Notes: a model not told the origin generated them from the sequence alone. A stretch of 64,000 nt of DNA from Patescibacteria group bacterium (GCA_052035325.1 JBPOHR010000011.1:8131-72130); one strand, 5' to 3'; positions 10,810 to 54,664 are shown, counted from the first letter of the stretch. Program-made: numbers and translations.

Positions 10810-10822
10810 GGATACAGACAGT

Positions 10823-11941
10823 ATGACGATTCATGATATTTTACAGATGCTGGTGGACCAAGAAGGTTCAGATATCCACATTGTGACGGGAATGCCACCG
10901 ATGTTGCGGGTGCATGGCGAGTTACAGGCGATTCCTGGCGCACCAGCGTTGACCCAAGAACAAGCCGAAGCTCTCATCATTCCAATCCTCAAACCAGAGC
11001 AAAAAGACTTTGTTAATGTCAACAAAGAAATTGACTTTGGTTATCAATTCTTGGACAAGGGTCGATTTCGCGTCAATGTCTATCATCAGCAAAATAAAAT
11101 GGCCGCAGCCTTGCGGTTGATTCCGGCTCGGGTCAAAACGATTGACGAACTCCAACTACCTGCAGTGTTTCATCAATTGACCGAGTTCAAGCAGGGTTTG
11201 GTATTGGTGACTGGGCCAACAGGTGAAGGGAAATCTACCACGTTGGCCGCCCTAATTGAGGAAATCAATGCTACTCGAGCAGATCATGTATTGACGATTG
11301 AAGATCCGATCGAGTTTATCTACACACCAAAAAAAAGCTTGTTGTCACAACGTGAAATTGGTCAAGATACCAATGGTTGGGATATTGCACTGCGCTCGGC
11401 ATTGCGTGAGGATCCTGATGTGGTGTTAGTGGGTGAGATGCGTGATTTTGAGACGATTGCTTCGGCAATTACGGTAGCCGAGACGGGTCATTTAGTCTTT
11501 GCGACGCTCCATACTGCGACCGCCGCACAAACAATTGATCGTATCATTGATGTCTTCCCAGCTCATCAACAAGGCCAAATCCGACAACAACTCGCGGCAA
11601 CACTGCAAGCAGTGGTATCACAACGACTAATTCCCCTTGTCCAAGGTGGACGGACAGCAGCATTCGAAGTGATGCTGGCCAATTCAGCTGTTCGCAATCT
11701 GATTCGTGAAGGTAAAACATTCCAAATCGACAATGTGATGCAGACATCAGGTGAGCAAGGCATGATGCTCATTGAGACGTATTTGTTGGGTCTGGTACAG
11801 CAAGGAGCAATTTCTCGAGAAAAAGCTCTTGAACATGCCTTTAGACCTGATGAACTGGAGAGAATTCTTGGATCAAATGAGGTAGTAGCACCCACCTATG
11901 GTGTCGAGAGTACCACCCAGATGCCTGGGACAGGAATGTAA
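10823..11941 (+). CDS. pilT: Twitching motility ATPase PilT
   Basis: Walker A VLVTGPTGEGKSTTLAAL, ...HLVFATLHT, PilT-length 372 aa, immediately downstream of pilB. Confidence 0.9.
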   Translation: MTIHDILQMLVDQEGSDIHIVTGMPPMLRVHGELQAIPGAPALTQEQAEALIIPILKPEQKDFVNVNKEIDFGYQFLDKGRFRVNVYHQQNKMAAALRLIPARVKTIDELQLPAVFHQLTEFKQGLVLVTGPTGEGKSTTLAALIEEINATRADHVLTIEDPIEFIYTPKKSLLSQREIGQDTNGWDIALRSALREDPDVVLVGEMRDFETIASAITVAETGHLVFATLHTATAAQTIDRIIDVFPAHQQGQIRQQLAATLQAVVSQRLIPLVQGGRTAAFEVMLANSAVRNLIREGKTFQIDNVMQTSGEQGMMLIETYLLGLVQQGAISREKALEHAFRPDELERILGSNEVVAPTYGVESTTQMPGTGM

Positions 11942-11943
11942 CC

Positions 11944-13146
11944 ATGGATATTTTTAAGTACAAAGTCAAAAATCAGCATGGAGAAACGATTGCTGGCAAG
12001 GTAGAGGCGCAGAGTCTAGCTCAAGCCGCAGCAGTATTGCGGGGACGCGGTTTGTTGGTGATCTCTGTCAAACCACAAAGCTCGTTTACTAGTGCGAAAC
12101 TACAAGAGTTTTTCGGGGGCGTTAAGCAAGATGAAGTAGTGACCCTGACGAGACAACTATCGACCATGATCACTGCTGGCTTACCACTTATCCAGGCAAT
12201 GTCGATTTTGGCGCAACAAAGCAAGCCTTCCCTTTCGCACCTGGTAAGCGAGTTACAGCGAGAAATTGAAGGCGGCAGCACGTTTGCCAAAGCGTTGGAG
12301 CGATTCCCGAAACAATTTTCTCGGGTCTATATTCAGCTAGTCCGGGCTGGTGAAATTGGCGGTGTCTTGGATGAAGTGTTGCAACGTCTAGCAGACAATA
12401 TGGAAAAAGATAAAGAGTTTCGTGCGAAGACGCGTGGGGCACTCATTTATCCGGCAATCGTTGTCATGGCATTGGTAGTAGTCGCAGCGGTGATGATGAT
12501 CTTTGTGATTCCAAAATTGACGGAAATGTACAAAGATTTTGGTGCAGAACTTCCACTGCCGACGCAAATTTTAATCAGCATGTCCAACTTTTCAGTCAAC
12601 TACTGGTGGATTATCCTGGCGGGAGTGATTGGCGGGACAGTATTCTTTAAGCGGTGGGTTGCAACCAAAGCCGGTCGGCACACCTTTGACAATTTCAAAC
12701 TCAAGATTCCTGTTTTCGGTATCCTTGTCTCAAAGATTATCCTGACCGAGTTTGCACGGACGCTTTCGTTGCTACTGGGCGCGGGCATATCCCTTCTACA
12801 GGCTTTGCAGATCGTGTCAGGTGCTTCAAGCAATGTCATTTTTCGCGAGGCGATGGAAGAATCTGCTCGACAAGTTGAGAAAGGTGTGCCCTTGTCTCAA
12901 TCTTTGTCGAGTTACAAAGTATTTCCACCTATTTTGTCACAAATGATTGCAGTAGGAGAAGAAACGGGCAAACTTGATGACGTGTTGATGAAGCTGTCAA
13001 AATACTTTGAAGCAGAGAGTGAAAATGCCGTGAAAAATATGACAACAGCATTGGAACCGATGATCATGATTGTGTTAGGAATTGGTGTGGGCGTGATGGT
13101 TATCGCCGTGATTATGCCAATTTACAATTTGACGAGTCAGTTTTAG
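11944..13146 (+). CDS. pilC: Type IV pilus platform protein PilC (GspF family)
   Basis: Two T2SS-F repeats, 3 TM segments, 400 aa, start overlaps the pilT stop. Confidence 0.85.
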   Translation: MDIFKYKVKNQHGETIAGKVEAQSLAQAAAVLRGRGLLVISVKPQSSFTSAKLQEFFGGVKQDEVVTLTRQLSTMITAGLPLIQAMSILAQQSKPSLSHLVSELQREIEGGSTFAKALERFPKQFSRVYIQLVRAGEIGGVLDEVLQRLADNMEKDKEFRAKTRGALIYPAIVVMALVVVAAVMMIFVIPKLTEMYKDFGAELPLPTQILISMSNFSVNYWWIILAGVIGGTVFFKRWVATKAGRHTFDNFKLKIPVFGILVSKIILTEFARTLSLLLGAGISLLQALQIVSGASSNVIFREAMEESARQVEKGVPLSQSLSSYKVFPPILSQMIAVGEETGKLDDVLMKLSKYFEAESENAVKNMTTALEPMIMIVLGIGVGVMVIAVIMPIYNLTSQF

Positions 13147-13172
13147 TTGGCAAGCAAGCGTTTTGTAGTGAT

Positions 13173-13193
13173 TTTTCACGAAGTTTTCACGAA
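13173..13193 (+). promoter_or_regulatory. Direct repeat TTTTCACGAA-g-TTTTCACGAA in the pilA upstream region
   Basis: Two exact 10-bp copies separated by 1 nt, about 105 nt upstream of the pilA ATG. Confidence 0.4.
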
Positions 13194-13298
13194 ACATTGT
13201 CGCTCGAGTAAGCCTGATAGAGATTTACCCCTTGCATCGTACTTTCATATTAGTGTAGTGTTGAGTTAGTACTAGATTAATGTACGGAAAATCTGCCT

Positions 13299-13946
13299 AT
13301 GTATTCTCCAAAAATGCTTACTCGCAGGCTGTCAGCGCAGCTGCATTCTCGTCAGTTAGTTCAAGCTGGTTTCACCATGATTGAGCTCTTGGTGGTGATT
13401 GCCATTCTAGGTATTTTGGCTGTAGCCGTACTTTCAGCAATCAACCCTATTGAGCAAATCAATCGGGGTCGCGATACGGCTTCCCAATCTGATGCGGAAC
13501 AGCTGCTGTCCGCTATTGATCGCTACGTAGCTTTCCAAGGCTATTTGCCATGGCAAAGTTCTCCAGATTCAACCACGCGCGAACTTGCTTGGGGCGAGTT
13601 TACTGATACGTTGGTGGATGATGGCGCTCCTACTGCATGTGCGGTTTATGTCAAACTCGGCGAAGGTGACACAAATTGTGAGGGCGCAGGTGAGCTCAAG
13701 GCGACCTTCTTCAATCGGATCCTCCGGGCCACTACACCAAATGCTAATCCACTCTACGTCTATCGCGGTGCTGGCGTGAGTGATAGTACCTATGCTTGCT
13801 TTGTGCCACAGTCACAAGCCTTCATGAACTTGGCAGTCAAGCGATGTGGAACTGCCGGAGATGGTTTGCCAACTGATGTTGATGCAACAACTGCTGATCT
13901 CATCTGTCCGGCTGATCCCGCAGGCACGTTCTACTGTATTCCTTAA
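13299..13946 (+). CDS. pilA: Type IV (major) pilin, class III signal peptide
   Basis: Prepilin motif ...QAG/FTMIELLVVIAILGILAVAV with Glu at +5; C-terminal Cys pairs; follows a long 5' intergenic region. Confidence 0.85.
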   Translation: MYSPKMLTRRLSAQLHSRQLVQAGFTMIELLVVIAILGILAVAVLSAINPIEQINRGRDTASQSDAEQLLSAIDRYVAFQGYLPWQSSPDSTTRELAWGEFTDTLVDDGAPTACAVYVKLGEGDTNCEGAGELKATFFNRILRATTPNANPLYVYRGAGVSDSTYACFVPQSQAFMNLAVKRCGTAGDGLPTDVDATTADLICPADPAGTFYCIP

Positions 13947-14031
13947 CCCTGTACACTACTGTAACAATGAAAACCGCCTCGCAAGGGGCGGTTTTTGCCA
14001 AATTGGACATGATAGCGTACGCTACTACTAG

Positions 14032-14865
14032 ATGCTTATCGCTTTTTTGTTGACCTCTACTCTACTTTTTGTCATCGGTGCTATTTTGGGAAGTTTTCTC
14101 AATGTGGTGATTTATCGCACACTCGATGATGATCCCGTCAAGCGACATGAGTCTTGGATGTCAGGATGGTCGCGGTGTGACTCATGCCACCACCGAATTG
14201 CCTGGTACGACAATATTCCACTCGTGTCGTACGTGGTATTGCAGGCCAAGTGTCGTAACTGTCATAAGCCAATCGGGGCAGCCCACCCCATGGTGGAGCT
14301 ACTGACAGGATCACTGCTGGTGTGGTGGTATTGGGGTGGTTCATTGTTTTTCCAGATTACCAAAGCACCGTTCCATACATTACAGCCGCTATTTTGGTTG
14401 AGTGTGGGTGTGTTGTTATTGGTGATTGCTTTGGCCGATCTTCGTTACTGGATTATTCCTGACTGGGCTGTGGTGATGTTGACTGGCTTGACTGTTCTGT
14501 ATCGAGTAGTCTTGGTAGGTGCTGGAGTGATGCAGTATCCCGATCTGGTGGCAACGCTGATTGCCAGTGTGCTAGCGACCGCCGGCTTGGGCGTATTATG
14601 GCTTGCCACCAAACGACAAGGTATTGGTTTGGGTGATGTTAAGTTGATGTTTCCACTGGGGTTGCTGGTGGGTTGGCCAAATGTGTTGGTGACGTTATTC
14701 TTGGGTTTTGTGTTGGGAGCGGTGGTTGGTATTGCCTTAGTCTTGCGCAAAACAAAAAACATTCATCAGGCAATCCCCTTTGGACCTTTTTTGGTACTCG
14801 CAAGTTGTGTAAGCTTAGTATGGGGAGACCGCATTGTGTCGTGGTATCTCCAGTTGCTTCGATGA
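14032..14865 (+). CDS. pilD: Prepilin peptidase PilD (A24 family)
   Basis: Zn-binding CDSCHHRI...CRNCHKPI tetracysteine, multi-TM, two catalytic Asp regions. Confidence 0.85.
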   Translation: MLIAFLLTSTLLFVIGAILGSFLNVVIYRTLDDDPVKRHESWMSGWSRCDSCHHRIAWYDNIPLVSYVVLQAKCRNCHKPIGAAHPMVELLTGSLLVWWYWGGSLFFQITKAPFHTLQPLFWLSVGVLLLVIALADLRYWIIPDWAVVMLTGLTVLYRVVLVGAGVMQYPDLVATLIASVLATAGLGVLWLATKRQGIGLGDVKLMFPLGLLVGWPNVLVTLFLGFVLGAVVGIALVLRKTKNIHQAIPFGPFLVLASCVSLVWGDRIVSWYLQLLR

Positions 14866-15785
14866 GAATCTTACGTTTTTTTATCACATCTCTTCTTATT
14901 ACTGCTTTGTTGGCAGGCACAGTATTTGTAATAGCTCGAGAAGCACTGCTTTTTTTGGCTACTAATCAAGTTAAATCGAGCATCACAACTATAGCTAGGA
15001 CCAATTATCTTCCTGGGGTGCCCCATATTGATTGTCAAACTCAGGGAAAAATTACCAGTGACATGACATTGATTAACGTGTATGCAGTCCAGCTAGGTTT
15101 TAGTGACGATCAGCATTTCACCTGGGAAGTTATTTGCGATTCCCCTCTCCGCGAGCCAAAAGTGTTGGCAGACTATGTATTACCACCTTTTGTCTACAAA
15201 ATAGCAGGCTCAGGTGGCCTTGTTTGGCGACAGCCGTACTCTGCTTTCACTTTGGAGGTATGGGGACGTCGTCGATCGTTTATATTAGAAAATCAATCTC
15301 TCCGTGTTACAGAAGGTAGCTTGACGCAGCCTCCTGATCAGCAACCAGTGGTGATGTGTGCGGGGATGGGTTACCAGTGTTGTCAACTTGATTCCGAGCA
15401 AGGTCTGGGGGCGGTGGCATCTGAAGTGCGAGACTGTCCACTGTCTTGTTTTGCACGCTGTCAAAGTCGACCAGTTATTTTGTCATTTAATACTGAACCA
15501 TATACTGATGCTCAAACTCGAGTGCTTGAAGTTGCTTCTGGGGATTTGATTTCATTTAATTATGTCATCGACGCAGGTGCGGGTGGTGATGTGACAACAG
15601 AGCTGTCTTTTGGGGATGGTGAAGTGAGTAAAGGTACAGAAGCAACAGCAACGGTTGAGCATACCTATCGGTGCCTGGCGCAGGTATGCGAATATCGGGC
15701 TACATTGGAGGCGACAGATGCTAGAGGGGCGACATCGCCGAGCAGTACAGTCAACACACTTACCATCAGGGTGACAGGCCGCTAA
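14862..15785 (+). CDS. Membrane-anchored Cys-rich protein with C-terminal PKD-like domain
   Basis: N-terminal TM helix, many Cys, LSFGDGEVSKG...VEHTY....YRATLEATDARG resembles the PKD signature (WDFGDG...HTY); ATGA start/stop overlap with pilD. Confidence 0.5.
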   Translation: MRILRFFITSLLITALLAGTVFVIAREALLFLATNQVKSSITTIARTNYLPGVPHIDCQTQGKITSDMTLINVYAVQLGFSDDQHFTWEVICDSPLREPKVLADYVLPPFVYKIAGSGGLVWRQPYSAFTLEVWGRRRSFILENQSLRVTEGSLTQPPDQQPVVMCAGMGYQCCQLDSEQGLGAVASEVRDCPLSCFARCQSRPVILSFNTEPYTDAQTRVLEVASGDLISFNYVIDAGAGGDVTTELSFGDGEVSKGTEATATVEHTYRCLAQVCEYRATLEATDARGATSPSSTVNTLTIRVTGR

Positions 15786-15799
15786 AAAATCGGTATAGT

Positions 15800-16261
15800 G
15801 TGATCATGAGCTTTCTTTTTTCTCAGCAAAAAACTCGACGTGCCAATGGGTTTACTCTGATTGAAATGTTGATTGTGATGGTAATTATTGGGATTTTGAC
15901 AACCTTGGTGGCGACCAACTTAGTGACGGCGCAGAGCCGTGGACGCGACGCGAAACGCAGGGCTGACATAAAAGCACTCCAGACAGCCTTCGAACTGTAC
16001 TACTCTGAAAATGGCTCATATGCCGCAACGTGTGATGCAATGGCCACAACGGCCTATCTTCCTCAGGGAGTTACTGCTGACCCTTCGACAAGTATCCCCT
16101 ACACGCACCAGAGCACTTGCCAAGTTGATACCACTGATTATTGTATTTGTGCGGAACTAGAGCGCGGCGGCGGCAATGCCACTGAGGGTCCTAGTTCGGC
16201 GCAATGTACGTATGCCAGTTCTGGTGAACGTCTCTGGTACTGCCAGAGTAATGTGCAGTAA
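15800..16261 (+). CDS. Type IV pilin/pseudopilin
   Basis: N-terminal ...ANG/FTLIEMLIVMVIIGIL prepilin motif; Cys pairs in C-terminal half. Confidence 0.75.
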   Translation: MIMSFLFSQQKTRRANGFTLIEMLIVMVIIGILTTLVATNLVTAQSRGRDAKRRADIKALQTAFELYYSENGSYAATCDAMATTAYLPQGVTADPSTSIPYTHQSTCQVDTTDYCICAELERGGGNATEGPSSAQCTYASSGERLWYCQSNVQ

Positions 16262-16270
16262 AGGTATGGT

Positions 16271-16756
16271 ATGACACAACACACTCACTCTACCCTCCCC
16301 CCGCGAGCGACCGGTTTTACCCTGATTGAAATTCTGATTGCAGTAGCGATTATGGTGATTTTAACCACGATTGGTTTGGTAAGTTACCGACAGGTGGGGA
16401 TTGGTGCTCGGGATGGCAAACGCAAAGCAGATTTAGAATCTGTACGCCAGGCATTGGTGTTTTATCGCACTGATGAGGGGATGTATCCGGATATAGCGAA
16501 TGCTGATATTAGTGGTGATTGTAGTGGCGGCTCTGATGCTCGCAGTGGTTTTGAGGAAATGCTTGGTGAATTGTCGAGCGAAGGGTATGTGACGGTGACC
16601 GGGAATGGTCTGAAAGATCCAAAGGATGGTATAGAGTGCTATGGGTATCGATATCGCAGTCCTGACAACGGAGCAACGTTTGAACTATGTGCCAAATTAG
16701 AGAGTGATGCAACTCCCACCACTCATAGTGATGACTATTGTGCCAACAGTCCATAA
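16271..16756 (+). CDS. Type IV pilin/pseudopilin
   Basis: ...ATG/FTLIEILIAVAIMVIL prepilin motif. Confidence 0.75.
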   Translation: MTQHTHSTLPPRATGFTLIEILIAVAIMVILTTIGLVSYRQVGIGARDGKRKADLESVRQALVFYRTDEGMYPDIANADISGDCSGGSDARSGFEEMLGELSSEGYVTVTGNGLKDPKDGIECYGYRYRSPDNGATFELCAKLESDATPTTHSDDYCANSP

Positions 16757-17252
16757 CACACTCATATCTGGACGCCAAGCTGGTTTCTCGGCTGGGTTTA
16801 CTATGATCGAATTGTTGGTCACGGTGACGGTTTTGTTGTTGATAACTGGATCAGGTATAGCAGCTATGATGCGGTTCAACGACCGCCAGTCTTTGCGAGA
16901 TAGTGCGCGAACATTGCAATCAACGCTGAAAAGTGCTGCTACGAGGGCAAAAATTGGTGATGTTCCTTCCGCATGTTTTGACGCTGCCGCAAAGTTGACA
17001 GGATACCGAGTCACTTTGATTCAAGGTACAGGAATAGTGACGGTTGAAGCAATGTGTGGGGCCCAAATCGTTTTGGTTGATCAGTTTTCCCTACCCAATT
17101 TTGTGGTGAGTGATACCACCGCCACTTTGGTGTTTTGGCCACTGTATGGAGGTGTGCAGGGAGCAACAGTCATTACGTTGGAGAAGGCACCGTTGCAGTA
17201 TCAGTTTGAAGTGACAACCGAGGGTGAGATTACTGACGGGGATTTTGAATGA
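16704..17252 (+). CDS. Type IV minor pilin-like protein (long leader; overlaps previous gene by 53 nt)
   Basis: ...SAG/FTMIELLVTVTVLLL prepilin motif; only in-frame ATG upstream is 16704. Confidence 0.6.
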   Translation: MMQLPPLIVMTIVPTVHNTLISGRQAGFSAGFTMIELLVTVTVLLLITGSGIAAMMRFNDRQSLRDSARTLQSTLKSAATRAKIGDVPSACFDAAAKLTGYRVTLIQGTGIVTVEAMCGAQIVLVDQFSLPNFVVSDTTATLVFWPLYGGVQGATVITLEKAPLQYQFEVTTEGEITDGDFE

Positions 17253-17761
17253 AAAAATCTTCTTTGTTGCAAACAGCTCTTAATCGGCGTCAACGACAGA
17301 ATCAACAAGGATCGGGGATTATTGAGGTCTTGATTGCCACCTTGGTGGTGGGAATGACACTGACTTCGGTAGCGGCAGTACTGACACTGTCGCTGAAAGC
17401 TAATGGCCAAAACCGACTGCGTGCCATAGCTCAGACACGTGCCCAAGAAGGTGTGGAAACATTCAGTCGCTATCGTGATGAGCTGGGGTGGCGGGCGTTC
17501 AGCACGCAGTTTCCGGCCGATACGCCTACAATCTACTGTCTAGACCCTTTACCAACATCGATGGCAGAATTCAGTACTATGGCGCCAGGTGCATGTACAC
17601 AAGGTGTGCAGCTTGTGGGTACCAGTTTCACCCGCCAGGTTGAAGTCACGCCACTCGGCGTCAGTCCGACGACAGCTGTGGGGATTCGTGTGACTGTTAG
17701 TTGGGAGGATGGCAATCAGACCAAGGACGTGACCTTGTATCAGGTGTTGAAGGATATTTGA
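17249..17761 (+). CDS. Type IV minor pilin-like protein (PilV/PilW-like)
   Basis: QQGSG/IIEVLIATLVVGMTL hydrophobic N-terminus with Glu at +5. Confidence 0.55.
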   Translation: MKKSSLLQTALNRRQRQNQQGSGIIEVLIATLVVGMTLTSVAAVLTLSLKANGQNRLRAIAQTRAQEGVETFSRYRDELGWRAFSTQFPADTPTIYCLDPLPTSMAEFSTMAPGACTQGVQLVGTSFTRQVEVTPLGVSPTTAVGIRVTVSWEDGNQTKDVTLYQVLKDI

Positions 17762-18796: not shown

Positions 18797-19378
18797 CTAT
18801 CTATTTCTCAACCGTGTTGTGGTAGTAAATGTCTGTTCGACAATATCTTTTGCCTGATCTATTCCCGGTATACCCTTGCGCAAAGTGAACGAAACGTCCA
18901 CAGCAGTCCCCCCTGCTCCACTCTGGCTGCAGTTAAACATCACCCGATCATCAGGATTTGGACCATTTTGAATTAATTCGACAGCAGCCGTCGTCAAGTA
19001 TGTGGTAGCTGTGGCTGAGGTGGAGGCAACTTTATACGTGCCAGAACCAGGCGGATCTTCGAGCGCTGTCAGTGTGTACAATCCACCATCAAAGCCTTTG
19101 ACAACCACCGATGTCATACTTGGTTGACAGGTTTGGCCATCGGCGTTTTGTTGGAGTTCTAGAGCATTACGGAGTAGAAACTCCATTTGTGCAATCGCCG
19201 CCGTGCCTTCCGTTTTTATCAGACTTAAACTATTGGTTTTAGTGTTGCCTATCAGTAGAGTGATGAACAATGTCGACGCAGTTAGCAGCAACATTACTGA
19301 CAACGTCACCACAATCAACAACTCAATTAAAGTAAAACCCCGTTGTGATTGTCGCATTTGATGGGAGTGGGCGTACAT
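18797..19378 (-). CDS. Type IV pilin-like protein (minus strand)
   Basis: QRG/FTLIELLIVVTLSVMLLL prepilin motif. Confidence 0.7.
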   Translation of the reverse strand: MYAHSHQMRQSQRGFTLIELLIVVTLSVMLLLTASTLFITLLIGNTKTNSLSLIKTEGTAAIAQMEFLLRNALELQQNADGQTCQPSMTSVVVKGFDGGLYTLTALEDPPGSGTYKVASTSATATTYLTTAAVELIQNGPNPDDRVMFNCSQSGAGGTAVDVSFTLRKGIPGIDQAKDIVEQTFTTTTRLRNR

Positions 19379-19379
19379 G

Positions 19380-21884
19380 CTAGTTGGTTTCCTGCCAGGT
19401 GTAGCTGGGGCGAGTCATTGGCTCAGGGAGTGTATTCACCAGATCAGGACGGAAGATAAATAGGTCAGCAGGAATGGTGTTGTTATCAGGGTCTGGCAAG
19501 ACACGCTGGAGCGATACACCAGTCCATCCTACAAAACTGCCTGCTCCAACAAATCGTTGATCTGCACTACCCCCTATGGTTCCGGTGCTGATGGTGCCAT
19601 CAGCTACGTAGATGCCCTCCAGATTCGGAGTGGCGTCGGTGCTGACAGGGTTGCCCACACTTGGGTCGATAGTAATATTCCCTTTGACGATAAATGCTAG
19701 ATACCCACCATTTGCGACGGTGATCAGTTGCGGTGTCGCTGGGGTTTCATCAGTAATGGTCAAGTTGCCATCCACAAAGATGGTTAGCGATTCACCACTC
19801 GCTACCTGCCAAGCATTTTTAATAATCAAATCACCCTGGTAATAGTACGCTTCACCACCGTTTGTTGGGGCGATGATGGGTTTTTGGGCATTGAGCGGAT
19901 CAAAGCCATCACTTGCAGGCGCATTTCCTAAACCAAACCGCGCTTTGAAGAAGGCAAAATCCTGGCGACCACTCGCTGTCCCCAAAATACGAGTTGCGGT
20001 ATTGAACACACTCGAGCCACGATCGGTCAACCGCGAGGTGTTGTACCCGTCACTTTCTTGAGTTGTATCAAGTGATGAGCCATTAGTAACGGCAATTCCC
20101 GCCGAATCAGTATCACCTGCCGTGTTGGTAGCCAACAAAAAGGGTGAGCAGCCGGGCGCACTGCAGACAGCACTTGGCGGCACGTTTGAGCCGATTCCCA
20201 GACTCGATGAAGCAGCCGCGTAGACATTGCCACCTTGGACTTGCCACCAGGCAGTGTTTAACACATCAGCAAAGAAAAAGTTATTACCACTTGAGGGCGA
20301 AGAGATGCCACTCAGGACACAGTTACCTCCTACATCCGTGCCACAGTTGCAACGATATGGGATGCCTGTCCCGGACAGTCCGGGGGTGAAGGTGATGACG
20401 TTGTTGGGATTGGTACTCCAGTAGGGCGTGTTGGGGAACGTATAGCTTGACGCACTGAGTGATGGTCCAGTGGTGCTGCTGTAGCCGCCTAAGCCGGCAA
20501 TGCTAATCATGCTACCGGTGCCAGGAGTGACGAGCGAAGCTGTTGCAGGATTGCAAGTGTTGCTGGGGTCGTAGTAGAAGTTACCCGAGACATCGCCAAT
20601 GAGTGAGACGACATGGGTGGCTGTCCAGGTGCCGTTGTCTGCGCCGCCGTAGGCGGCGCAAGTGGTGTTGATTGGTCGGACGCGGACTTCCCAAATAGTG
20701 ATACCTGCTGGGATGCCACTCCAGGTGTATGAGGTACCTGATACCGCTTGGCAAAGGGTATTTCCGCCAGTGCACTCGACTTGACCTTGCGGCGTGATGC
20801 GGATTTCGTAGGCATCAGCCAAGGTGGGTGGTGCGGTCCAAGTGAAGGCGACTTGATCGGTTGTAGGAGTCACTGTGAAAACAGTACCACTGGGTAGTGC
20901 GCCATTTGCCCGTAGGTTAGTGACTGCGACTGGTCCACCATCGTCGGTAGTGGGACAGGTGCCGGTACAGCCATCCCATTGTCCACAAGCACCTCCCGAA
21001 CAGTTAGCCGTACAATTCAAAACCGTGACTTGACGAGAGCCTTCACACTTCAAATCGCTATAGTTACCATCTTCATGAACACGAATTTTCAGAATAGAAG
21101 AGCCAGCAGTGTTGGAAGTCAGATTGGATACAAACGTTGGCCCTGTGCCAATTGAGCTGGGGTTGACAACACCCAGGTTGGCACCGTTCCAAGTGAACGT
21201 ACCGTCCCACCAATTGATTGCCCCATTTGCATAGGCTTGAACTTCTACAGTTTGTCCCAGCGGCATTGTGATTGGTCCGGTGCCAGTCGTGCTAGTAGGC
21301 TGCCACTGCACAGTACAAGCCGCTCCCCCACCTCCACACGTGCCAGGGTCCCAAAGACAGCTTCCATTAGGAGCTAAGACACATTGACTGGGAGGTCCAG
21401 GTGGACAGTTGCTACAAGAAGTGCCACAAGCACCCCAAGTTGGTGGCGGGGGTGGGCCTCCACTGCCACAACTATCAGTTACCCAGTCTGCACATGACTT
21501 AGTATTTGGCATGCAGGAGCTACAGCCAGGACAGTAGAATGTCCCAGAGGGGCAGGATGTAGTAGCACAGGTGATAGTGCTATTCTCATCAATCGTCATA
21601 CAGTGACTAACCCCATCTGGGACATCGCAAGAATCAGTGCAGTTTCTGTGAATTAATGGTAGCGGGCCAGTACAAGCTCCACCGGATAATGAACAACTTC
21701 CGCCGACAATAGTGTCAACTGGTGAGCAACACAATTCATGTGTTAATGGGCTAACAAGCTGTGATTGGCAATACTGTGCAGTATAGGGATACAAATATGT
21801 GCCACACACTTGAGCTGTTGCAGGCATGACATGAACCAATGTGAGAAAAATACAGACAACAGCAATGAGTAGTGCTTTTTTCAT
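19380..21884 (-). CDS. Large secreted Cys-rich protein (candidate pilus-associated adhesin)
   Basis: Signal peptide MKKALLIAVVCIFLTLVHVMPATAQ; about 60 Cys in CxxC/CxC arrays; PPPP tract; Gly/Thr/Ser-rich; stop overlaps start of the upstream pilin-like gene. Confidence 0.5.
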   Translation of the reverse strand: MKKALLIAVVCIFLTLVHVMPATAQVCGTYLYPYTAQYCQSQLVSPLTHELCCSPVDTIVGGSCSLSGGACTGPLPLIHRNCTDSCDVPDGVSHCMTIDENSTITCATTSCPSGTFYCPGCSSCMPNTKSCADWVTDSCGSGGPPPPPTWGACGTSCSNCPPGPPSQCVLAPNGSCLWDPGTCGGGGAACTVQWQPTSTTGTGPITMPLGQTVEVQAYANGAINWWDGTFTWNGANLGVVNPSSIGTGPTFVSNLTSNTAGSSILKIRVHEDGNYSDLKCEGSRQVTVLNCTANCSGGACGQWDGCTGTCPTTDDGGPVAVTNLRANGALPSGTVFTVTPTTDQVAFTWTAPPTLADAYEIRITPQGQVECTGGNTLCQAVSGTSYTWSGIPAGITIWEVRVRPINTTCAAYGGADNGTWTATHVVSLIGDVSGNFYYDPSNTCNPATASLVTPGTGSMISIAGLGGYSSTTGPSLSASSYTFPNTPYWSTNPNNVITFTPGLSGTGIPYRCNCGTDVGGNCVLSGISSPSSGNNFFFADVLNTAWWQVQGGNVYAAASSSLGIGSNVPPSAVCSAPGCSPFLLATNTAGDTDSAGIAVTNGSSLDTTQESDGYNTSRLTDRGSSVFNTATRILGTASGRQDFAFFKARFGLGNAPASDGFDPLNAQKPIIAPTNGGEAYYYQGDLIIKNAWQVASGESLTIFVDGNLTITDETPATPQLITVANGGYLAFIVKGNITIDPSVGNPVSTDATPNLEGIYVADGTISTGTIGGSADQRFVGAGSFVGWTGVSLQRVLPDPDNNTIPADLFIFRPDLVNTLPEPMTRPSYTWQETN

Positions 21885-22399
21885 TTTTGGTATAAAAGTT
21901 GAAGTTCGTTTATCGAGCGACTTATTGTAACCACTTCACTGCTGCCGGTAAGATCCTTTAAATCCGATTCGTTTGGAACAAACATAATCACCACCCAGTC
22001 CTTGTTTAGGTTAGTGATATCCAACAAGGGTGTCAGTTGAAAGTTAATAGTTGAAGGAATTTTGAAATCACTGATCTGCGATGTTGCCATGTATGGATTA
22101 TTGAAGTCGATTTGTCGTACTGTGATTGTTTTTTGTTTTCCTTGATACGATGAGTGAAGTCGCCAACTATTTGCCGATGTATCTTTTCTCAGTGTGCCGA
22201 CAATGTATACAAATGGATTACTTTGAAGACGATTTATTCCATAATGTATTTGAGTTTTAGTAGATGATAAAGATAGATCGATTTCAGGTGGTGTGCTTGG
22301 AATACTGAGCGGCGTATATCGTTGTCGCAACAGAAACAACCCTCCGACAAGTAAACATACTAGCGCTACAACAACTAACCAACGACGTAAATGATTCAC
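21881..22399 (-). CDS. Hypothetical membrane-anchored protein
   Basis: N-terminal TM LVVVALVCLLVGGLFLL; 4-nt overlap with downstream gene. Confidence 0.4.
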   Translation of the reverse strand: MNHLRRWLVVVALVCLLVGGLFLLRQRYTPLSIPSTPPEIDLSLSSTKTQIHYGINRLQSNPFVYIVGTLRKDTSANSWRLHSSYQGKQKTITVRQIDFNNPYMATSQISDFKIPSTINFQLTPLLDITNLNKDWVVIMFVPNESDLKDLTGSSEVVTISRSINELQLLYQK

Positions 22400-22451
22400 G
22401 ATACCAGTTTGACTGAAAAACTACTTGAAGTCAATTTTCGTCTACTTTGAG

Positions 22452-24458
22452 TTATTCGGTGTCCCCGTACCAGAGATCATTGCGAAAGTCATCTACTATT
22501 TCAGTTGGCACGAGCATTGTACTTGCTGAAACAATAAGAGTTTTTCTACTATTAGGAGCATTAGAATTTCCTACCAGAAAATCCATTGTTGTTTGGTCGT
22601 CTCCTCCAGCTGAGTACAGCGCTGAGGCAAGAGCGGCACAGTTTACACCACAATCGAAATGATCAGCTAATCCCTGGGTTAAACTATCTAAAGAAAATAT
22701 TTCTGGATATTCGTTAGACAAACCAAGTCCAAACAAAGTTCCAGGAGGCATATCTGTTTGAAGTGATTCGAATGGACGTCCTTGCATGTCAGCATGCGAT
22801 CCACCGCCATGAATGACAACAGCACTCCCTTCTTGCATTGGGAGTGAGAGTAATACCCACCCTGTCCCATCGCCGGTTGGTACTAACATGTCCAAAAAGC
22901 GTAGAGTTCCTCGAATATCTCCATTTACATATGGACGTGTGCGTATGCCCATAAACCAGCCGACTACTACTAGTCCATCTTGACCTAATATCCTCTCAGG
23001 ATTTGGAGCAATACCCGGTCGCAATCCTGTGAGCTCATTATTAAATGGTACGACAAAGTCATGACCATCAATTCTGAGCACATACCCATTTTCTGTTGAT
23101 GAGTAGCTGATATTAGAGCGAGCCAAGACTTGCTCAATTTGATCAAATGTAGAAGTCGGGTTTTCAAGGACGTTTAGTAAGCTCATTGAGCTCATCGCCT
23201 CAATATCCACAAGCGTTTCCAATACAACAGGGCTGTCTCCAGGATTCAATCCTGGCAGAACTAGCTCAGTCACATTAAGGCTTACCACTCCAAGATTAAT
23301 CCATCCCACCTGACCATTGACACTAACTCGTATCCAGTGACTTTCTGGATCATTTTCACCACCAGAAATCGTCTTCATCGTGGGGAGTCCCATGTATGTT
23401 GATGGCTCAACATTTTCAGTCCAACCCTCTGGTTCATCCGTCGGTGTTTGTGTAGGGACTGGTGTTTCTTCAGTACCAACCGAGCCTATCTCATTGTCCC
23501 CAAACCTTGGCTCAGAGCGCAGGTTAATAGTAGTATTTGGTGTAATTGTTACAGCTGGCAATAATGCTATCGGGATACCTTTTGCAATTATGGTTTTAAT
23601 ATGTACATTTGACCCATCGGTGTTGAAAGATAAAAGAATAAAATTGCCAACCGGTGGGAACTCAAAGTCTTCCAAGCTGGGGTAGGTGGTACGCAAGGTA
23701 GCTATTGTTTCATCTGTTACTTGTATAAATGTTGCTCGCTCATTCTCATTGGCAAACAAATATGAGACAATTTGTTCTCCATTTTGTCCTGTAACTGTCG
23801 TGATCAGTGAACCGGTACCGACAACAGGGCCGTCAGGTACGGTAAATGATTCCGTGCAATGCAATGCAGCTAGCACTCTGAAACCAGTGCGATCTGCGTT
23901 TGGCGTTACAAACAATCTTAACGAAAAGTTGTCCTCGGAAATATCTTCCCGGCCTTCAATGAACCTCCCCATCACTTGCAGCAAAGACTGGATTTCCCTT
24001 CCCAACTCGGAGTTTTCGTCAATTCCATACTCCCCGAAGGGATTTGTCACGGGAAGTTCAAAAGGTTCCGTACCTGGTTGTGTGGCTGAATAGGACAAAA
24101 CTTCAAAAATACCGCCAGACTCTGCAGTGATGCTGACAGGGGTATAGCCTTGAATTTCGTTAGATTCGATCTGTTTTTCAGGCGAGCGATGCTCCAAAAG
24201 CGAGTCAATCTCAGTGTTAGGAGGTGCAATGTGTGGATCTCCGGCAGGAGGATCTTCGTTATTTATTACGTCTCGCTCAGCATTGGCGGGTATTACCCGT
24301 CCAAGCAGTGCAGATAGCGCAACTGCTAAAACCACCAGACGTCTATTAAGTCCACGTCTCTCACCTGAGCGCGGAACCATATTCGGCAATTTACCACGAT
24401 CACGTACAATTGTTGTGCCTGCTGTTTCTTTTAAATTGTTCATTGTTTCGTCTACCAT
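22452..24458 (-). CDS. Large hypothetical secreted/membrane-anchored protein
   Basis: N-terminal anchor LVVLAVALSALLG; PT-rich linker; no confidently recognisable catalytic motif. Confidence 0.4.
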   Translation of the reverse strand: MVDETMNNLKETAGTTIVRDRGKLPNMVPRSGERRGLNRRLVVLAVALSALLGRVIPANAERDVINNEDPPAGDPHIAPPNTEIDSLLEHRSPEKQIESNEIQGYTPVSITAESGGIFEVLSYSATQPGTEPFELPVTNPFGEYGIDENSELGREIQSLLQVMGRFIEGREDISEDNFSLRLFVTPNADRTGFRVLAALHCTESFTVPDGPVVGTGSLITTVTGQNGEQIVSYLFANENERATFIQVTDETIATLRTTYPSLEDFEFPPVGNFILLSFNTDGSNVHIKTIIAKGIPIALLPAVTITPNTTINLRSEPRFGDNEIGSVGTEETPVPTQTPTDEPEGWTENVEPSTYMGLPTMKTISGGENDPESHWIRVSVNGQVGWINLGVVSLNVTELVLPGLNPGDSPVVLETLVDIEAMSSMSLLNVLENPTSTFDQIEQVLARSNISYSSTENGYVLRIDGHDFVVPFNNELTGLRPGIAPNPERILGQDGLVVVGWFMGIRTRPYVNGDIRGTLRFLDMLVPTGDGTGWVLLSLPMQEGSAVVIHGGGSHADMQGRPFESLQTDMPPGTLFGLGLSNEYPEIFSLDSLTQGLADHFDCGVNCAALASALYSAGGDDQTTMDFLVGNSNAPNSRKTLIVSASTMLVPTEIVDDFRNDLWYGDTE

Positions 24459-24766
24459 GACTCTTTTCTAGCACACTCTATGTGTAAAAGAAAGGTAGGT
24501 AGTCTGTTGCATTTTTTTACTACATTTTGGTGTTATAGTTATTTATTATAAGCCTAATTAAGTTTATAAAAAAAATACCCTATAGCACCTGGTAGGCGCA
24601 TTATACAAAAGGCCTAGAGAAATATAAATGTGTATTTAATGAGTATGTAAAAATTGACATGTATGTTAATTATACCTATTTCATCTAGTGGTAAAATATA
24701 CAGGCGTTGAGCTGGGATATAACCTGGGACACAACAACATGAGATAATTTATAAATAAGTGAAAAT

Positions 24767-27317: not shown

Positions 27318-28331
27318 ATGCCCATAGCTCTTGCCCTCGATATCGGTTCCTACACTATCAAAGCCATTAGTGCCAAACCAGGCGCGCGTCCCAACGTGCA
27401 GCGTGTGGTGGAGGTATTTAATCCCCTAGGCATTAGTGTGCCTGGAGACGAGGCTCAGATCGAGAAGTTGGCAGCACAGGTTCAAGCAGTCATCACCGAT
27501 AACAAGTTACCGACGATCGATGTTCGGTTGGCCCTCCCAGAAAGCGTGGTTTCAACCAAGGTTATTTCTTTACCGAGTTTGACTGATGCTGAATTAGCTT
27601 CGGCAATTGGTTGGCAAGCAGAACAACACATTCCCATCCCCCCCGAAGAGCTTTCTCTCGAGTATGAAGTGTTGTTTCGACCACCGCGCAAGGACAAAAA
27701 TACACTCATGCGAGTGTTGTTGGTTGGTGTGCGTAAATCGGTGATTGAGAAATACATGGCTGTGTTTGGTCTACTCGGTATCGAGCCGACAATTCTCGAG
27801 ACCCAGATGATGTCAATTATTCGCTCGGCGCAGTTTGCAGCGACCGATCCAGCTACTTTGATAGTTCACTTGGGAGCCGCTACCATGGATATGGCTTTGG
27901 TCAATCAGGGTCAACTTGATTTTGTCATTTCGCACTTGAGTGGTGGTCAATCTTTGACCAAACTTCTGTCACAGCAGATTGGTTTGGATGCTGCCCAGGC
28001 AGAAAGTTACAAACGGACGTATGGTCTAGAGCCTGAACAGTTCCAAGGTAAGGTGCGTGGGGTGCTTTTGCCTGCAACAACAATATTACTTAGCGAGATG
28101 CAAAAATCGGTTCGTTTTTTCTTATCGCAACATCCCGCTGAACAAGTCAAACGAATAGTACTCTCGGGTGGGACTGCTCAGTTGCCAGGCTTTGTACAGT
28201 ATATTACTCAAGAACTGGGCACGGAAGTGCTCGTGGCAGCTCCCTTTACCCCCGCAACTGGTCAATTACCGTCAGTCAATCACGCAGCTCTGACCGTGTG
28301 TATGGGTCTGTTGATGCGGGAAGGCAACTAG
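27318..28331 (+). CDS. pilM: Type IV pilus assembly protein PilM (actin-like ATPase fold)
   Basis: ALDIGSYTIKAI start, actin/FtsA-like fold length (337 aa), followed by pilN/pilO. Confidence 0.8.
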   Translation: MPIALALDIGSYTIKAISAKPGARPNVQRVVEVFNPLGISVPGDEAQIEKLAAQVQAVITDNKLPTIDVRLALPESVVSTKVISLPSLTDAELASAIGWQAEQHIPIPPEELSLEYEVLFRPPRKDKNTLMRVLLVGVRKSVIEKYMAVFGLLGIEPTILETQMMSIIRSAQFAATDPATLIVHLGAATMDMALVNQGQLDFVISHLSGGQSLTKLLSQQIGLDAAQAESYKRTYGLEPEQFQGKVRGVLLPATTILLSEMQKSVRFFLSQHPAEQVKRIVLSGGTAQLPGFVQYITQELGTEVLVAAPFTPATGQLPSVNHAALTVCMGLLMREGN

Positions 28332-28337
28332 CCGACC

Positions 28338-28892
28338 ATGCCAAGTATTAACTTTTTGCGCGAGCGTCGCCGAAAACTGACCAAACAGCAAAAGTTCGAT
28401 TTCCAGGCTTTTCGCGTAACCAGTGTGGTCTGTGTGGTGGCGGTGGTGTTGTTGGTTGCAACTGTATCGGCTCGACTCGCTTTGGCTATGATGGTAAGTC
28501 GCTCGACTCAAGAACAAAATCGGTTGATGACGAGCATCAAACAGCAGGAAACAAACGAACGTACGTATCTAGTTTTTGCGGCAAAATTGAAGGCTCTCAG
28601 TGAGCTCTTGGCTCAGCGTCAGGATAAACAGTTAGCTATTACCTACTTTTCAACAATTTTTGGTGAAGGTGTGTTGGTAAGTGACATATCCTACGATGGT
28701 GATGCAGAGACATTGACCTTTGGATTGAAAGCTGCAGACGTTTTTACCCTCGAAAAAGTACTACAAGTTCTCAAGAGCGAAGATGTAAAGCAACAATTTG
28801 AAGGAGTGAAAACTGACGCTATTTCTCGCTCAACAACTGCTGAATATCAGACTACTGTCACGATTGTTCTAAAAAAGGATTCTGACCAATAA
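28338..28892 (+). CDS. pilN: Type IV pilus assembly protein PilN
   Basis: Basic N-terminus, single TM, coiled coil; positional homolog. Confidence 0.65.
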   Translation: MPSINFLRERRRKLTKQQKFDFQAFRVTSVVCVVAVVLLVATVSARLALAMMVSRSTQEQNRLMTSIKQQETNERTYLVFAAKLKALSELLAQRQDKQLAITYFSTIFGEGVLVSDISYDGDAETLTFGLKAADVFTLEKVLQVLKSEDVKQQFEGVKTDAISRSTTAEYQTTVTIVLKKDSDQ

Positions 28893-28895
28893 ACT

Positions 28896-45894: not shown

Positions 45895-45968
45895 GAACTC
45901 GTAGCTCAGTTGGTTAGAGCGCTTCATTGACATTGAAGAGGTCAGAGGTTCGAATCCTCTCGAGTTCA
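45895..45968 (+). tRNA. tRNA-Val (anticodon GAC)
   Basis: GAACTCGTAGCTCAGTTGGTTAGAGCG...; anticodon loop TTGACAT; T-arm GGTTCGAATCC; acceptor GAACTCG/CGAGTTC. Confidence 0.8.
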
Positions 45969-50260: not shown

Positions 50261-50334
50261 GGCACGGTACCAGAGTGGTCCAATGGCTAGGTCTGCAAAA
50301 CCTCAGTTCAGGGGTTCAAATCCCCTCCGTGCCT
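50261..50334 (+). tRNA. tRNA-Cys (anticodon GCA)
   Basis: GGCACGG...anticodon arm AGGT-CTGCAAA-ACCT gives GCA; T-arm GGGGTTCAAATCCCC; acceptor GGCACGG/CCGTGCC. Confidence 0.7.
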
Positions 50335-54291: not shown

Positions 54292-54311
54292 AGTAGCGTA
54301 TAATCATCTCA

Positions 54312-54655: not shown

Positions 54656-54664
54656 TATAGTGAT

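Follow-up and report, generated by a model that had tools for sequence, protein, structure and literature searches.

Type IV pili (T4P) are essential in cultivated Saccharibacteria, and the components of the pilus tip are undefined outside this group (PMC11623550, PMC11665869). Among the Saccharibacteria (TM7x), PilX1 and PilX2 are candidate tip proteins; they carry large accessory domains without a canonical PilD signal and have been proposed to serve as tip adhesins (PMC11623550). ComZ of Thermus thermophilus is a DNA-binding protein that pairs with a neighbouring pilin (PMC6561018). Both ComZ and cyanobacterial PilX are themselves pilins; they have a hydrophobic helix at the N-terminus, and their pilin fold, which is GspK-like, accommodates a solenoid between its final two strands. 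In Pseudomonas, Neisseria and Myxococcus, PilY1/PilC is instead a large protein that is exported by the Sec route and is not a pilin, and its gene accompanies those of minor pilins. It is still to be explained how ultrasmall epibionts find their hosts and hold on to them.

Here, we analyse a 64,000-nucleotide stretch of DNA from a Patescibacteria group bacterium (GCA_052035325.1 JBPOHR010000011.1:8131-72130; hereafter the window), in which the gene for an 834-aa secreted protein adjoins a pilin gene. An initial annotation likened the two to a PilY1/PilC-type adhesin and its priming pilin. We give a probability of roughly one half to the reading that this secreted protein is a non-pilin adhesin or plug of the T4P, rich in disulfides and exported through Sec, which is associated with the pilus tip and docks through its solenoid on the co-encoded pilin.

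The gene pair and its type IV pilus locus

Both genes exist as initially described. An ORF call places the gene for the Cys-rich, modular 834-aa protein (P0001) at 19380..21884 on the minus strand, and the 193-aa prepilin gene lies at 18797..19378 on the same strand. The two abut, the TAG stop codon of the former being separated from the pilin ATG by a 1-nt gap, and both are opposite in strand to the main pil operon (8791..17761, plus strand), as had been claimed. This complete T4P operon converges on the pair and, by Pfam and NCBIfam matches, encodes PilB (8791-10809), PilT (10823-11941), PilC (11944-13146), a pilin (13299-13946), PilD (14032-14865), a PKD-domain protein ending at 15785 and four more pilins (15800-16261, 16271-16756, 16704-17252 and 17249-17761, the last two GspH/FimU-like and PilV-like, respectively). 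Genes for the assembly-platform proteins PilM, a PilN-like protein and PilO are found at 27318..29729 on the plus strand (PilM_2 E = 5.7e-43; weak PilO match). Glu5 is retained by all six pilins of the locus, which leaves no obvious capping pilin of the GspK/PilX type, and none of the 40 window proteins scanned matches PilY1 or Neisseria_PilC. The window thus offers no alternative cap, an observation in favour of a tip adhesin or plug.

The 193-aa protein is a type IV pilin of the minor type and a putative priming pilin. It has the prepilin motif QRG|FTLIE, Glu5 and a hydrophobic helix, PilD is encoded in the locus, and the protein matches Pfam N_methyl (PF07963; 30.8 bits against a cut-off of 21.2, E = 1.9e-7) and TIGR02532 (26.3 bits, cut-off 16.3). 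The GspJ, ComGF, PpdC-type and HpsC models gave weak N-terminal matches far below their cut-offs, and a PDB profile search matched the N-terminal helix alone. In an alignment of 25 orthologues, F, L, E5 and two Cys are invariant. That the partner pilin keeps Glu5, and that these searches place it in no particular minor-pilin class, counts against a tip adhesin or plug.

The same gene pair is found in a syntenic locus (L001), where the orthologue P0002 shares 58% identity with the 834-aa protein and the PilM, PilN-like and PilO genes are also present. Across 78 species-level loci of the family, pilin orthologues occur in 46; in 40 of these, the pilin gene directly follows the family gene on the same strand, the two being a median of about 4 nt apart. 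The same T4P array converges on the pair in most linked loci. Where the order is rearranged (L021, L048 and L077), orientations differ but the family gene is still found at the minor-pilin array; that the association outlasts rearrangement speaks for a tip adhesin or plug. Tandem duplicated copies of the family gene precede the pilin gene in some loci. A reverse search of metagenome contigs from the pilin gave six weak matches among those listed, all on short contigs, the GFTLIELL pattern being generic.

Altogether, 50 of the 78 loci lie in T4P clusters, while the remaining 28 hold solitary paralogues that adjoin housekeeping genes and include all Chloroflexota loci. The initial comparison with an adhesin and pilin pair therefore holds in part; the pairing (40/78), the T4P clusters (50/78) and the lack of any enzyme-family match agree with it, whereas the 28 solitary loci do not, and these also weigh against a tip adhesin or plug. 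They further indicate that the module is not obligatorily linked to pili, unless the solitary paralogues dock in trans. Homologues are, however, not consistently located away from pilus genes, and the linkage of the family to the pilus is well supported. The existence of more than 1,000 homologue clusters, together with a gene pair kept across species-level genomes, places the 834-aa gene far beyond chance.

Upstream of the 834-aa gene, and assigned with uncertainty on spacing, are two same-strand ORFs (21881..24458, minus strand). One encodes a membrane-anchored 172-aa protein and overlaps the start of the 834-aa gene by 4 nt; the other encodes a secreted 668-aa protein with a weak SH3_3 match. 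Both are possibly co-transcribed with the 834-aa gene. Neither protein has significant similarity to its positional counterpart in L001 (E = 0.27 and 0.36) or any match in the 78 loci, and we therefore rejected a conserved four-gene cluster of 668-aa, 172-aa, 834-aa and pilin genes. A "169-aa gene" in BOKX01000001 is a gene call overlapping the N-terminus of a family gene. The conservation of the pilin pairing, though not of the upstream neighbours, is an observation on the side of a tip adhesin or plug. A scan for promoters and terminators gave site counts no higher than in shuffled sequence, the best promoter-like site being at 24628..24600, upstream of the 668-aa gene. Operon signals are thus indistinguishable from those of shuffled sequence, which counts against a tip adhesin or plug.

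Domain architecture and protein family

The 834-aa protein begins with a Sec signal peptide, followed by a Cys-rich region of 165 aa, three Ig/FN3-like domains and, at the C-terminus, a beta-solenoid module of 294 aa. The signal peptide (residues 1-25, MKKALLIAVVCIFLTLVHVMPATA|QV; 21810..21884, minus strand), which had been noticed initially, is recognisable from hydrophobicity and a modelled helix; the best 19-aa Kyte-Doolittle window (2.53) begins at residue 4, and residues 2-19 are helical in the structure model. Cleavage probably occurs after residue 25. Neither a further hydrophobic segment nor LPXTG was found in a scan of the whole protein, ruling out a C-terminal sorting signal of the sortase or transmembrane type, and nothing in the mature protein anchors it to the membrane or cell wall. 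Nor is there a prepilin motif or GFxxxE in this protein or in the family (about 90 family ORFs examined). The missing anchor and the missing prepilin N-terminus both favour a tip adhesin or plug. The mature protein is also strongly acidic, with a pI of 4.2 overall and 4.17 for the C-terminal module (13 K+R against 26 D+E).

The cysteines had been overestimated; there are 39 rather than about 60, and the supposed CxxC/CxC arrays come down to two CxxC, one CxC and one CC. At 4.7% (median 0.58%), the Cys content is the highest of 51 window proteins. So is the combined Gly, Thr and Ser content (34%, median 19.5%), and in this the initial annotation was correct, as it was about a proline tract. The tract (PPPPP, residues 144-148) lies in the Cys-rich, Gly/Pro-rich N-terminal region, delimited by composition (residues 26-190; 21315..21809, minus strand), which holds 23 of the 39 Cys. 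This region is modelled with low confidence at residues 20-108 and 142-190 and shares 45% identity with P0002 across 19 gaps, compared with 58-70% for the C-terminal parts. We propose that it forms the ligand-binding end.

Ig or FN3 repeats had been suggested as targets for a fold search, and three such domains are present at about residues 191-540. The first (residues 191-290; 21015..21314, minus strand) is an all-beta, Ig-like sandwich modelled with a pLDDT of about 64-86, whose PDB matches in Foldseek are tandem FN3/Ig proteins. It is joined by a nearly invariant Cys-knot linker (residues 291-315, C..NC....CGQ..GC.G.C; 20940..21014, minus strand), with C295, C300 and C306 at least 90% conserved in alignment A2 and a family consensus of CxPxCGQxxGCGGxC, to an FN3-like domain (residues 316-428; 20601..20939, minus strand; pLDDT about 90 or higher). 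The latter matches FN3 arrays of titin, contactin and fibronectin in Foldseek, and Pfam fn3 is matched in 5/37 relatives. Domain 3 (residues 429-540; 20265..20600, minus strand) is again an all-beta, Ig-like sandwich (pLDDT 76-94); tandem FN3/Ig matches belong to the part of the model that holds it, these matches coming without individual query coordinates.

Because such FN3/Ig arrays dominated the Foldseek search of the full-length model, which was silent on the C-terminus, the C-terminal module was modelled separately. The model shows a right-handed triangular beta-solenoid of the ice-binding-protein-1/ComZ type at residues 541-804 (19473..20264, minus strand), and this is the family-defining part of the protein. 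A beta-propeller had been suggested as a further target; the conserved module is modelled as a solenoid instead. Neither the full-length nor the C-terminal model contains a pilin domain, and the solenoid sits C-terminally. Sequence searches of the PDB with full-length and C-terminal profiles found nothing significant (kinesin, E = 0.85; tail fibre, E = 0.11), NCBIfam gave no match, and no enzyme family was matched in Pfam, NCBIfam or the PDB sequence searches.

Beyond the solenoid lies a tail conserved across relatives (residues 805-834, LFIFRPDLVNTLPEPMTRPSYTWQETN; 19383..19472, minus strand). Its F809, R812, P813, P820 and W830 are invariant in 37 relatives and E832 is at least 90% conserved, giving a family end motif of FRPD..P..M..P.Y.WQETN. 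With 70% identity to P0002, the tail is the best conserved of all segments, and the motif is kept in linked and solitary paralogues alike. We propose that it is a docking element. In the monomer model, the greater part of the tail is packed against the solenoid with confidence, so its conservation may merely reflect capping of the beta-helix, a point against a tip adhesin or plug. The last eight or so residues are unpacked, however, with pLDDT down to 60, and that an invariant tail should end unpacked is a point in favour.

An exhaustive HMMER search found 1,271 cluster representatives (50% identity clusters, E<=1e-3), and all members that are named are called "hypothetical protein". A word-indexed search had returned only two proteins with the full protein and five with the full-length alignment, its candidate list having probably been taken up by low-complexity words from the N-terminus; the exhaustive search and a separate one with the C-terminal module alone overcame this. 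Homology across the family is limited to the C-terminal 290-550 aa. The N-terminal parts vary widely in length and contain 5-66 Cys, and relatives carry discoidin, TSP1 and FN3 modules. A conserved C-terminal anchoring end with a variable distal N-terminus is what a tip adhesin or plug might be expected to show.

The only sequence-family signal is to Pfam DUF7305 (PF23981), which is itself uncharacterised and of which we found no mention in the literature. It matches residues 679-780 at 18.2 bits (E = 0.0025), below the gathering threshold of 27 bits. Twelve of the 37 relatives match at E<=0.01 (best E = 1.2e-6), and two relatives have precomputed PF23981 matches. This points to a distant relationship rather than formal membership.

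Proposed role and alternative explanations

We infer that the 834-aa protein binds the pilin, is physically associated with the pilus, sits at its tip and acts in adhesion. Cleavage of the signal peptide would leave the mature protein without an anchor, and the solenoid, with its invariant FRPD...W.E tail, would dock on the co-translated 193-aa minor pilin and probably also on the minor-pilin complex encoded opposite. The complex would be placed at the pilus tip, capping or plugging the fibre, since a mature protein of about 809 aa is presumably too bulky for the filament body. There, the three Ig/FN3-like domains would act as a stalk, holding the Cys-rich, variable N-terminal region away from the fibre, where it would bind a surface or the host. 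The protein would stand in for PilY1/PilC, absent from this locus, and would represent the tip-pilin solenoid of ComZ and cyanobacterial PilX as a separate polypeptide (a "ComZ/PilX solenoid in trans").

The 834-aa protein could instead have a structural role alone, as a plug or as a primer of pilus assembly, priming as PilY1 does but without adhesion, the N-terminus being antigenic decoration or a spacer. All evidence of pilus linkage applies equally here, the locus has neither PilY1 nor a Glu5-less pilin, and the cyanobacterial PilX solenoid has been proposed as a plug (bioRxiv 10.64898/2026.02.12.705559). However, a plug alone would explain neither the roughly 500 aa of stalk and variable Cys-rich head nor the tandem copies ahead of the pilin and the carbohydrate-binding modules of relatives. 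A solely structural role thus seems unlikely, although it is compatible with a tip adhesin and the two are not exclusive.

We also doubt that the protein is a free-standing surface or secreted protein of the DUF3494/ice-binding type, in which a solenoid head would bind ice, polysaccharide or a repetitive surface, the Ig domains would be spacers and the adjacent pilin would reflect co-regulation of envelope genes. The modelled solenoid does share its fold with DUF3494/IBP-1 proteins (ColAFP, 3wp9; SfIBP_1, 6bg8; FfIBP), but the PF11999/DUF3494 signature is absent from the 834-aa protein (E<=0.1) and from 37 relatives (E<=0.01), and nothing would hold the mature protein on the cell. Same-strand coupling to one pilin orthologue in 40/78 loci is hard to credit to co-regulation alone, as other neighbours are not conserved. 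Record titles, a weak argument, suggest activated sludge, groundwater and marine sources rather than cold niches, and ice binding by the family is not suggested by these environments.

Less probable still is a DNA receptor for natural transformation at the pilus tip, the role proposed for ComZ, in place of an adhesin for hosts or surfaces. Such a role would fit the modelled solenoid shared with ComZ, itself a DNA binder partnered by an adjacent pilin (PMC6561018), and DNA uptake has been raised as a possible extra role of Saccharibacteria T4P-1 (PMC11623550). Yet the mature protein and its module are strongly acidic, the long variable Cys-rich N-terminus and the discoidin and TSP1 modules of relatives look protein- or glycan-binding, and no sequence similarity to ComZ was detected in PDB profile searches, which also counts against a tip adhesin or plug. 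Finally, an enzymatic beta-helix (a polysaccharide lyase or depolymerase) directed against host envelopes and exported beside the pilus genes is very improbable. Many of the module's beta-helix fold matches are lyases, tailspikes and glycosidases, which speaks for it; no enzyme family is matched by sequence.

Returning to the tip adhesin or plug, we note that the family combines a fold modelled with confidence, a C-terminal motif that is diagnostic and a conserved partner in one specific pilin. This makes the protein a concrete candidate for the end of the pilus that touches the host in Microgenomates/Pacebacteria-type CPR, and a strong one, though unproven. The newly defined family is large (1,271 clusters at 50% identity) and unannotated wherever the source names its members. 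More speculatively, the CPR/Patescibacteria and some Chloroflexota may have a two-piece pilus tip, in which a soluble, Sec-exported solenoid protein completes or caps the minor-pilin complex in trans through its invariant tail (a "split" ComZ/PilX). Hypervariable disulfide-rich N-termini, and solitary paralogues sharing the docking module, would then form an exchangeable host-specificity repertoire for epibiotic attachment. We regard this wider scheme as tentative and rather doubtful. For the prediction of host range from metagenomes, the variable N-termini would offer natural markers.

Comparison with known systems

Several described proteins resemble the 834-aa protein in part. The tapirins of Caldicellulosiruptor were considered and rejected; their beta-helix is of a different type, the likeness is much weaker than that to the ice-binding-protein/ComZ cluster, and we know of no conserved pairing of tapirins with a pilin. 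From the DUF3494/IBP-1 proteins, the family is set apart by its pilus gene context, conserved tail motif and Cys-rich N-terminus. With PilX1 and PilX2 of Saccharibacteria, it shares a CPR T4P locus, large accessory domains, the lack of a canonical PilD signal and a proposed role as tip adhesin. Saccharibacteria are named in 0/78 record titles, which is weak evidence of absence as the loci were gathered with a single peptide pattern.

Like the 834-aa protein, PilY1/PilC is large, exported by Sec, not a pilin and encoded alongside minor pilins; in both, the C-terminal domain is conserved and the N-terminal part varies, and the presumed role as tip adhesin, plug or primer is the same. They differ in fold, PilY1 having a beta-propeller and the 834-aa protein a modelled beta-solenoid, with no vWA domain and no PF05567. 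The initial annotation was therefore right to suspect that the PilY1 propeller was missing, and the likeness is one of functional analogy rather than homology.

With ComZ (PDB 6qvi) and cyanobacterial PilX, in turn, it is the modelled triangular, ice-binding-protein-like beta-solenoid that is shared. Unlike these pilins, the 834-aa protein is led by a cleavable Sec signal and lacks a pilin domain, and its solenoid stands at the extreme C-terminus, behind some 515 aa that comprise the Cys-rich region and the Ig/FN3 domains; the protein is also acidic, whereas ComZ binds DNA. This suggests that the solenoid "plug" fused into the tip pilins of Thermus and cyanobacteria can occur as a separate polypeptide. 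If so, a separate solenoid would link the PilY1-type and PilX/ComZ-type ways of capping a pilus.

Gene pair and its surroundings

The 834-aa protein is encoded on the minus strand (19380..21884), a single base separating its TAG stop from the ATG of a 193-aa ORF on the same strand (18797..19378), much as the initial annotation had described. The 193-aa product is a pilin, with a canonical prepilin motif (QRG|FTLIELLIVV) and matches above cut-off to Pfam N_methyl (30.8 bits vs 21.2) and TIGR02532 (26.3 bits vs 16.3). The claimed signal peptide, proline tract and Gly/Thr/Ser richness of the 834-aa protein were all found: a Sec-type signal peptide, PPPPP at residues 144-148, and a G+T+S content of 34%, the highest among 51 window proteins (median 19.5%). 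The cysteines had been overestimated, at about 60; we counted 39, 23 of them within residues 26-190. The protein is nevertheless the most Cys-rich in the window (4.7%; median 0.58%), but the claimed CxxC/CxC arrays come down to two CxxC, one CxC and one CC. Beyond the signal peptide there is neither a further hydrophobic segment nor an LPXTG motif, and the protein therefore lacks its own anchor.

On the plus strand, and convergent with the pair, lies a complete type IV pilus (T4P) operon, identified by Pfam and NCBIfam matches, which begins with PilB (8791-10809), PilT, PilC, a pilin and PilD, and ends with a PKD-domain protein and four pilins (one GspH/FimU-like, one PilV-like). Further along, at 27318-29729, are PilM, a PilN-like protein and PilO. 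The locus contains neither PilY1 nor a Glu5-less pilin; no PilY1/Neisseria_PilC domain was found among the 40 window proteins scanned, and all six pilins in the window keep Glu5. Ranked by cysteine content, the top five proteins of the window are all extracellular products of the pilus locus (13299-16756 and 19380-21884), the 834-aa protein being joined by three pilins (2.5-3.9%) and the PKD protein (3.3%). This implies that the pilus apparatus of this organism leans heavily on disulfide bonds.

Upstream on the minus strand, a membrane-anchored 172-aa ORF (21881-22399), overlapping the start of the 834-aa gene by 4 nt, and a 668-aa ORF may be co-transcribed with it; a promoter and terminator scan performed no better than on shuffled sequence. 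Neither ORF is conserved: compared with the ORFs in the equivalent places of L001, the syntenic locus of the closest relative, similarity is not significant (E = 0.27 and 0.36), and 78 other loci gave no matches. The 172-aa ORF, perhaps a fast-evolving gene and perhaps not a gene, has an unusually low GC content (38% vs 46.5% for the window). No exact match to its predicted sequence occurs in the public protein collection, and similarity to its 169-aa positional counterpart in L001 is not detectable.

Between the two convergent operons lies an acidic 323-aa ORF (17821-18792, plus strand) in which a 54-nt tandem repeat (17926-18090; 3.1 copies at 93% matches) specifies an 18-aa unit (consensus ETVRAEESTLETGEKIFD). 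The ORF matches nothing in Pfam or NCBIfam, is missing from L001 and is without a homologue in any of the 78 related loci; it has the look of an insertion specific to this lineage. The Cys-rich PKD protein (~14865-15785, longest ORF from 14673, plus strand), between PilD and the pilin array, carries an N-terminal hydrophobic segment that is probably membrane-spanning. With homologues in 36 of the 78 loci, and at the same position in those inspected, it is apparently a conserved part of CPR-type T4P loci that awaits characterisation. A 270-aa ORF just upstream of PilM (26455-27267, plus strand; weak ASRT match) may be another conserved accessory gene of the same pilus system, as its homologues lie beside PilM in L020, L073 and L077 and elsewhere within T4P locus L048. 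Ordinary housekeeping genes on the plus strand include a bacterial class A RNase P RNA (54311-54660; 117.9 bits) and three tRNA genes (1843-1915, 45895-45968 and 50261-50334).

A C-terminally defined family and its neighbourhoods

Word-indexed searches recovered a single relative of the 834-aa protein, P0002 (58% identity), whose locus is syntenic with the window and likewise has a pilin gene downstream (196 aa) and a convergent pil operon. Identity between the two is 45% in the Cys-rich region, 43% in Ig1, 66% in FN3, 62% in Ig3, 58% in the solenoid and 70% in the tail. An exhaustive HMMER search gave 1,271 cluster representatives at E<=1e-3, 301 of them at E<=1e-30. Homology is always C-terminal, comprising the final ~290 aa of every protein and extending over the final ~520 aa of many, and reaches the end of the protein with the motif FRPDf..N.PE.M..P.Y.WQETN. 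Lengths range from 559 to 1,603 aa through N-terminal parts of varying length, which hold 5-66 cysteines; the last 300 aa hold a median of 2.

Every relative that is given a name at source is a 'hypothetical protein', and we found no paper describing this family. NCBIfam and PDB sequence searches with the protein and family profiles returned nothing. The sole sequence-family signal was a sub-threshold match to Pfam DUF7305 (18.2 bits), a family matched by 12 of 37 aligned relatives (best E = 1.2e-6), making the protein at best a distant relative. Membership of DUF3494 by sequence was rejected, there being no PF11999 signature. Some relatives carry fn3 modules, and some (P0178, P0207, P0015 and one member of the 37-relative alignment A2) carry recognisable binding modules: thrombospondin type 1 repeats (E = 3.9e-11), discoidin/F5-F8 type C (PF00754; within the C-terminal module in one relative) and a LamG-like segment read by eye. 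The discoidin, TSP1 and LamG-like modules fit an adhesive role for the variable parts.

We then compared neighbourhoods in one genome per species (GTDB representatives), searching the ORFs of 78 loci with the window's own proteins. The loci come mostly from Patescibacteria (Microgenomates, Pacebacteria/Paceibacterota, Woesebacteria), with a few from Chloroflexota and one from TM6, and no family member in them has an N-terminal prepilin motif. The initial annotation would have been refuted by homologues lying consistently away from pilus genes; they do not, one or more T4P genes being present within 6 kb in 50 of 78 loci. The 193-aa pilin has an orthologue in 46 loci, immediately downstream on the same strand in 40/78 (median gap ~4 nt), although the loci are phylogenetically related and these are not independent events. 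Beyond it usually follow, convergently, a PilV-like protein, a GspH-like protein, two pilins, the PKD protein, PilD, a pilin and PilC; in L021, L048 and L077 the orientation is altered, with the family gene still beside the minor-pilin array. The remaining 28 loci (36%), including all those from Chloroflexota, are solitary paralogues adjoining housekeeping genes, and retain the C-terminal motif. We conclude that the pairing is genuine and kept by selection, though not every family member has it. Since other neighbours are not conserved, this argues for selection on the gene pair itself.

Two tandem family genes directly precede the conserved pilin in L032, L040-L043, L046, L050 and L054 (several titled Pacebacteria/Paceibacterota), the first copy ~565-680 aa and the second ~440-470 aa with few cysteines, which suggests that the pilus-linked copy has duplicated and specialised. 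In BOKX01000001.1 (L007/L086, ~1127272-1140918), where the gene pair lies apart from the remaining T4P genes, the deposited call shortens the family gene to 509 aa and places a 169-aa ORF in another frame over its Cys-rich N-terminal region; a 793-aa ORF with a signal peptide is more plausible. Many family-bearing contigs (L002, L009, L012, L014, L016-L018, L065 and others), of which several bear CPR-type T4P loci, have the titles 'uncultured Pseudomonadales', 'Vitreimonas sp.', 'Gammaproteobacteria' or 'Methylococcaceae', and the taxonomy labels of these MAG records are probably wrong.

Predicted structure and possible role

Built on a 37-sequence alignment, the model of the whole protein (pLDDT 76) is confident from residue ~190 to 825, with low confidence across most of the Cys-rich region. 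A Foldseek search against the PDB, bearing on the Ig/FN3 repeats suggested for a fold search, matched tandem FN3/Ig arrays, consistent with three predicted beta-sandwich domains at ~191-290, 316-428 and 429-540. Modelled separately from 33 sequences, the C-terminal module (residues 540-834) reached pLDDT 90.3 and pTM 0.89, although confidence in the monomer is low over the final ~8 residues of the tail, which is invariant in the family. The layout is a Cys-rich head, a three-domain stalk, a C-terminal solenoid and the tail.

Given the conserved, tight operonic pairing with one minor-type pilin, solenoid and tail may dock on that pilin or on the minor-pilin complex. If docked, the mature protein (~809 aa) would sit at the pilus tip, being too bulky for other sites in the fibre, and its variable N-terminal end could touch a host or other surface. 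We consider a functional tie to the pilus likely, a tip location slightly favoured, and an adhesin function tentative, a little short of even odds; for the combined statement we put the probability at roughly 0.5. As a large, clearly bounded family that lacks annotation, it matters directly for how CPR bacteria attach to their hosts; the key steps of the proposed mechanism are inferred.

A free-standing DUF3494-like surface protein would agree with the best fold matches and with the solitary loci, but seems unlikely for a protein that has neither that family's signature nor an anchor, and it leaves the specific pilin pairing unexplained. It is similarly improbable that the protein serves solely as a structural plug or primer; this is compatible with a tip adhesin, but gives no reason for the long, variable head. 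A DNA receptor, as the fold shared with ComZ might suggest, is less likely still, given the strong acidity of the protein (pI 4.2 overall; 13 K+R vs 26 D+E in the solenoid module).

Comparison with known pilus tip proteins

In ComZ, a GspK-like pilin, a triangular solenoid resembling that of ice-binding proteins is inserted in the pilin fold; ComZ binds PilA2, the adjacent pilin, and its tip position was argued on steric grounds (PMC6561018). An inserted solenoid of this kind is reported by a 2026 preprint in all cyanobacterial PilX homologues (bioRxiv 10.64898/2026.02.12.705559), while the proposed tip proteins of Saccharibacteria, PilX1 and PilX2, bear other domains, jelly-roll and propeller (PMC11623550). 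The 834-aa protein has no pilin helix or pilin domain and so is not a ComZ/PilX-type pilin. Nor is it a PilY1/PilC homologue, as it lacks the propeller, whose presence the initial annotation had already doubted. As in PilY1, its family combines a C-terminus that is conserved with an N-terminus that varies. The protein probably acts in the manner of PilY1 and of the ComZ/PilX solenoid, in its case supplied as a polypeptide in its own right.
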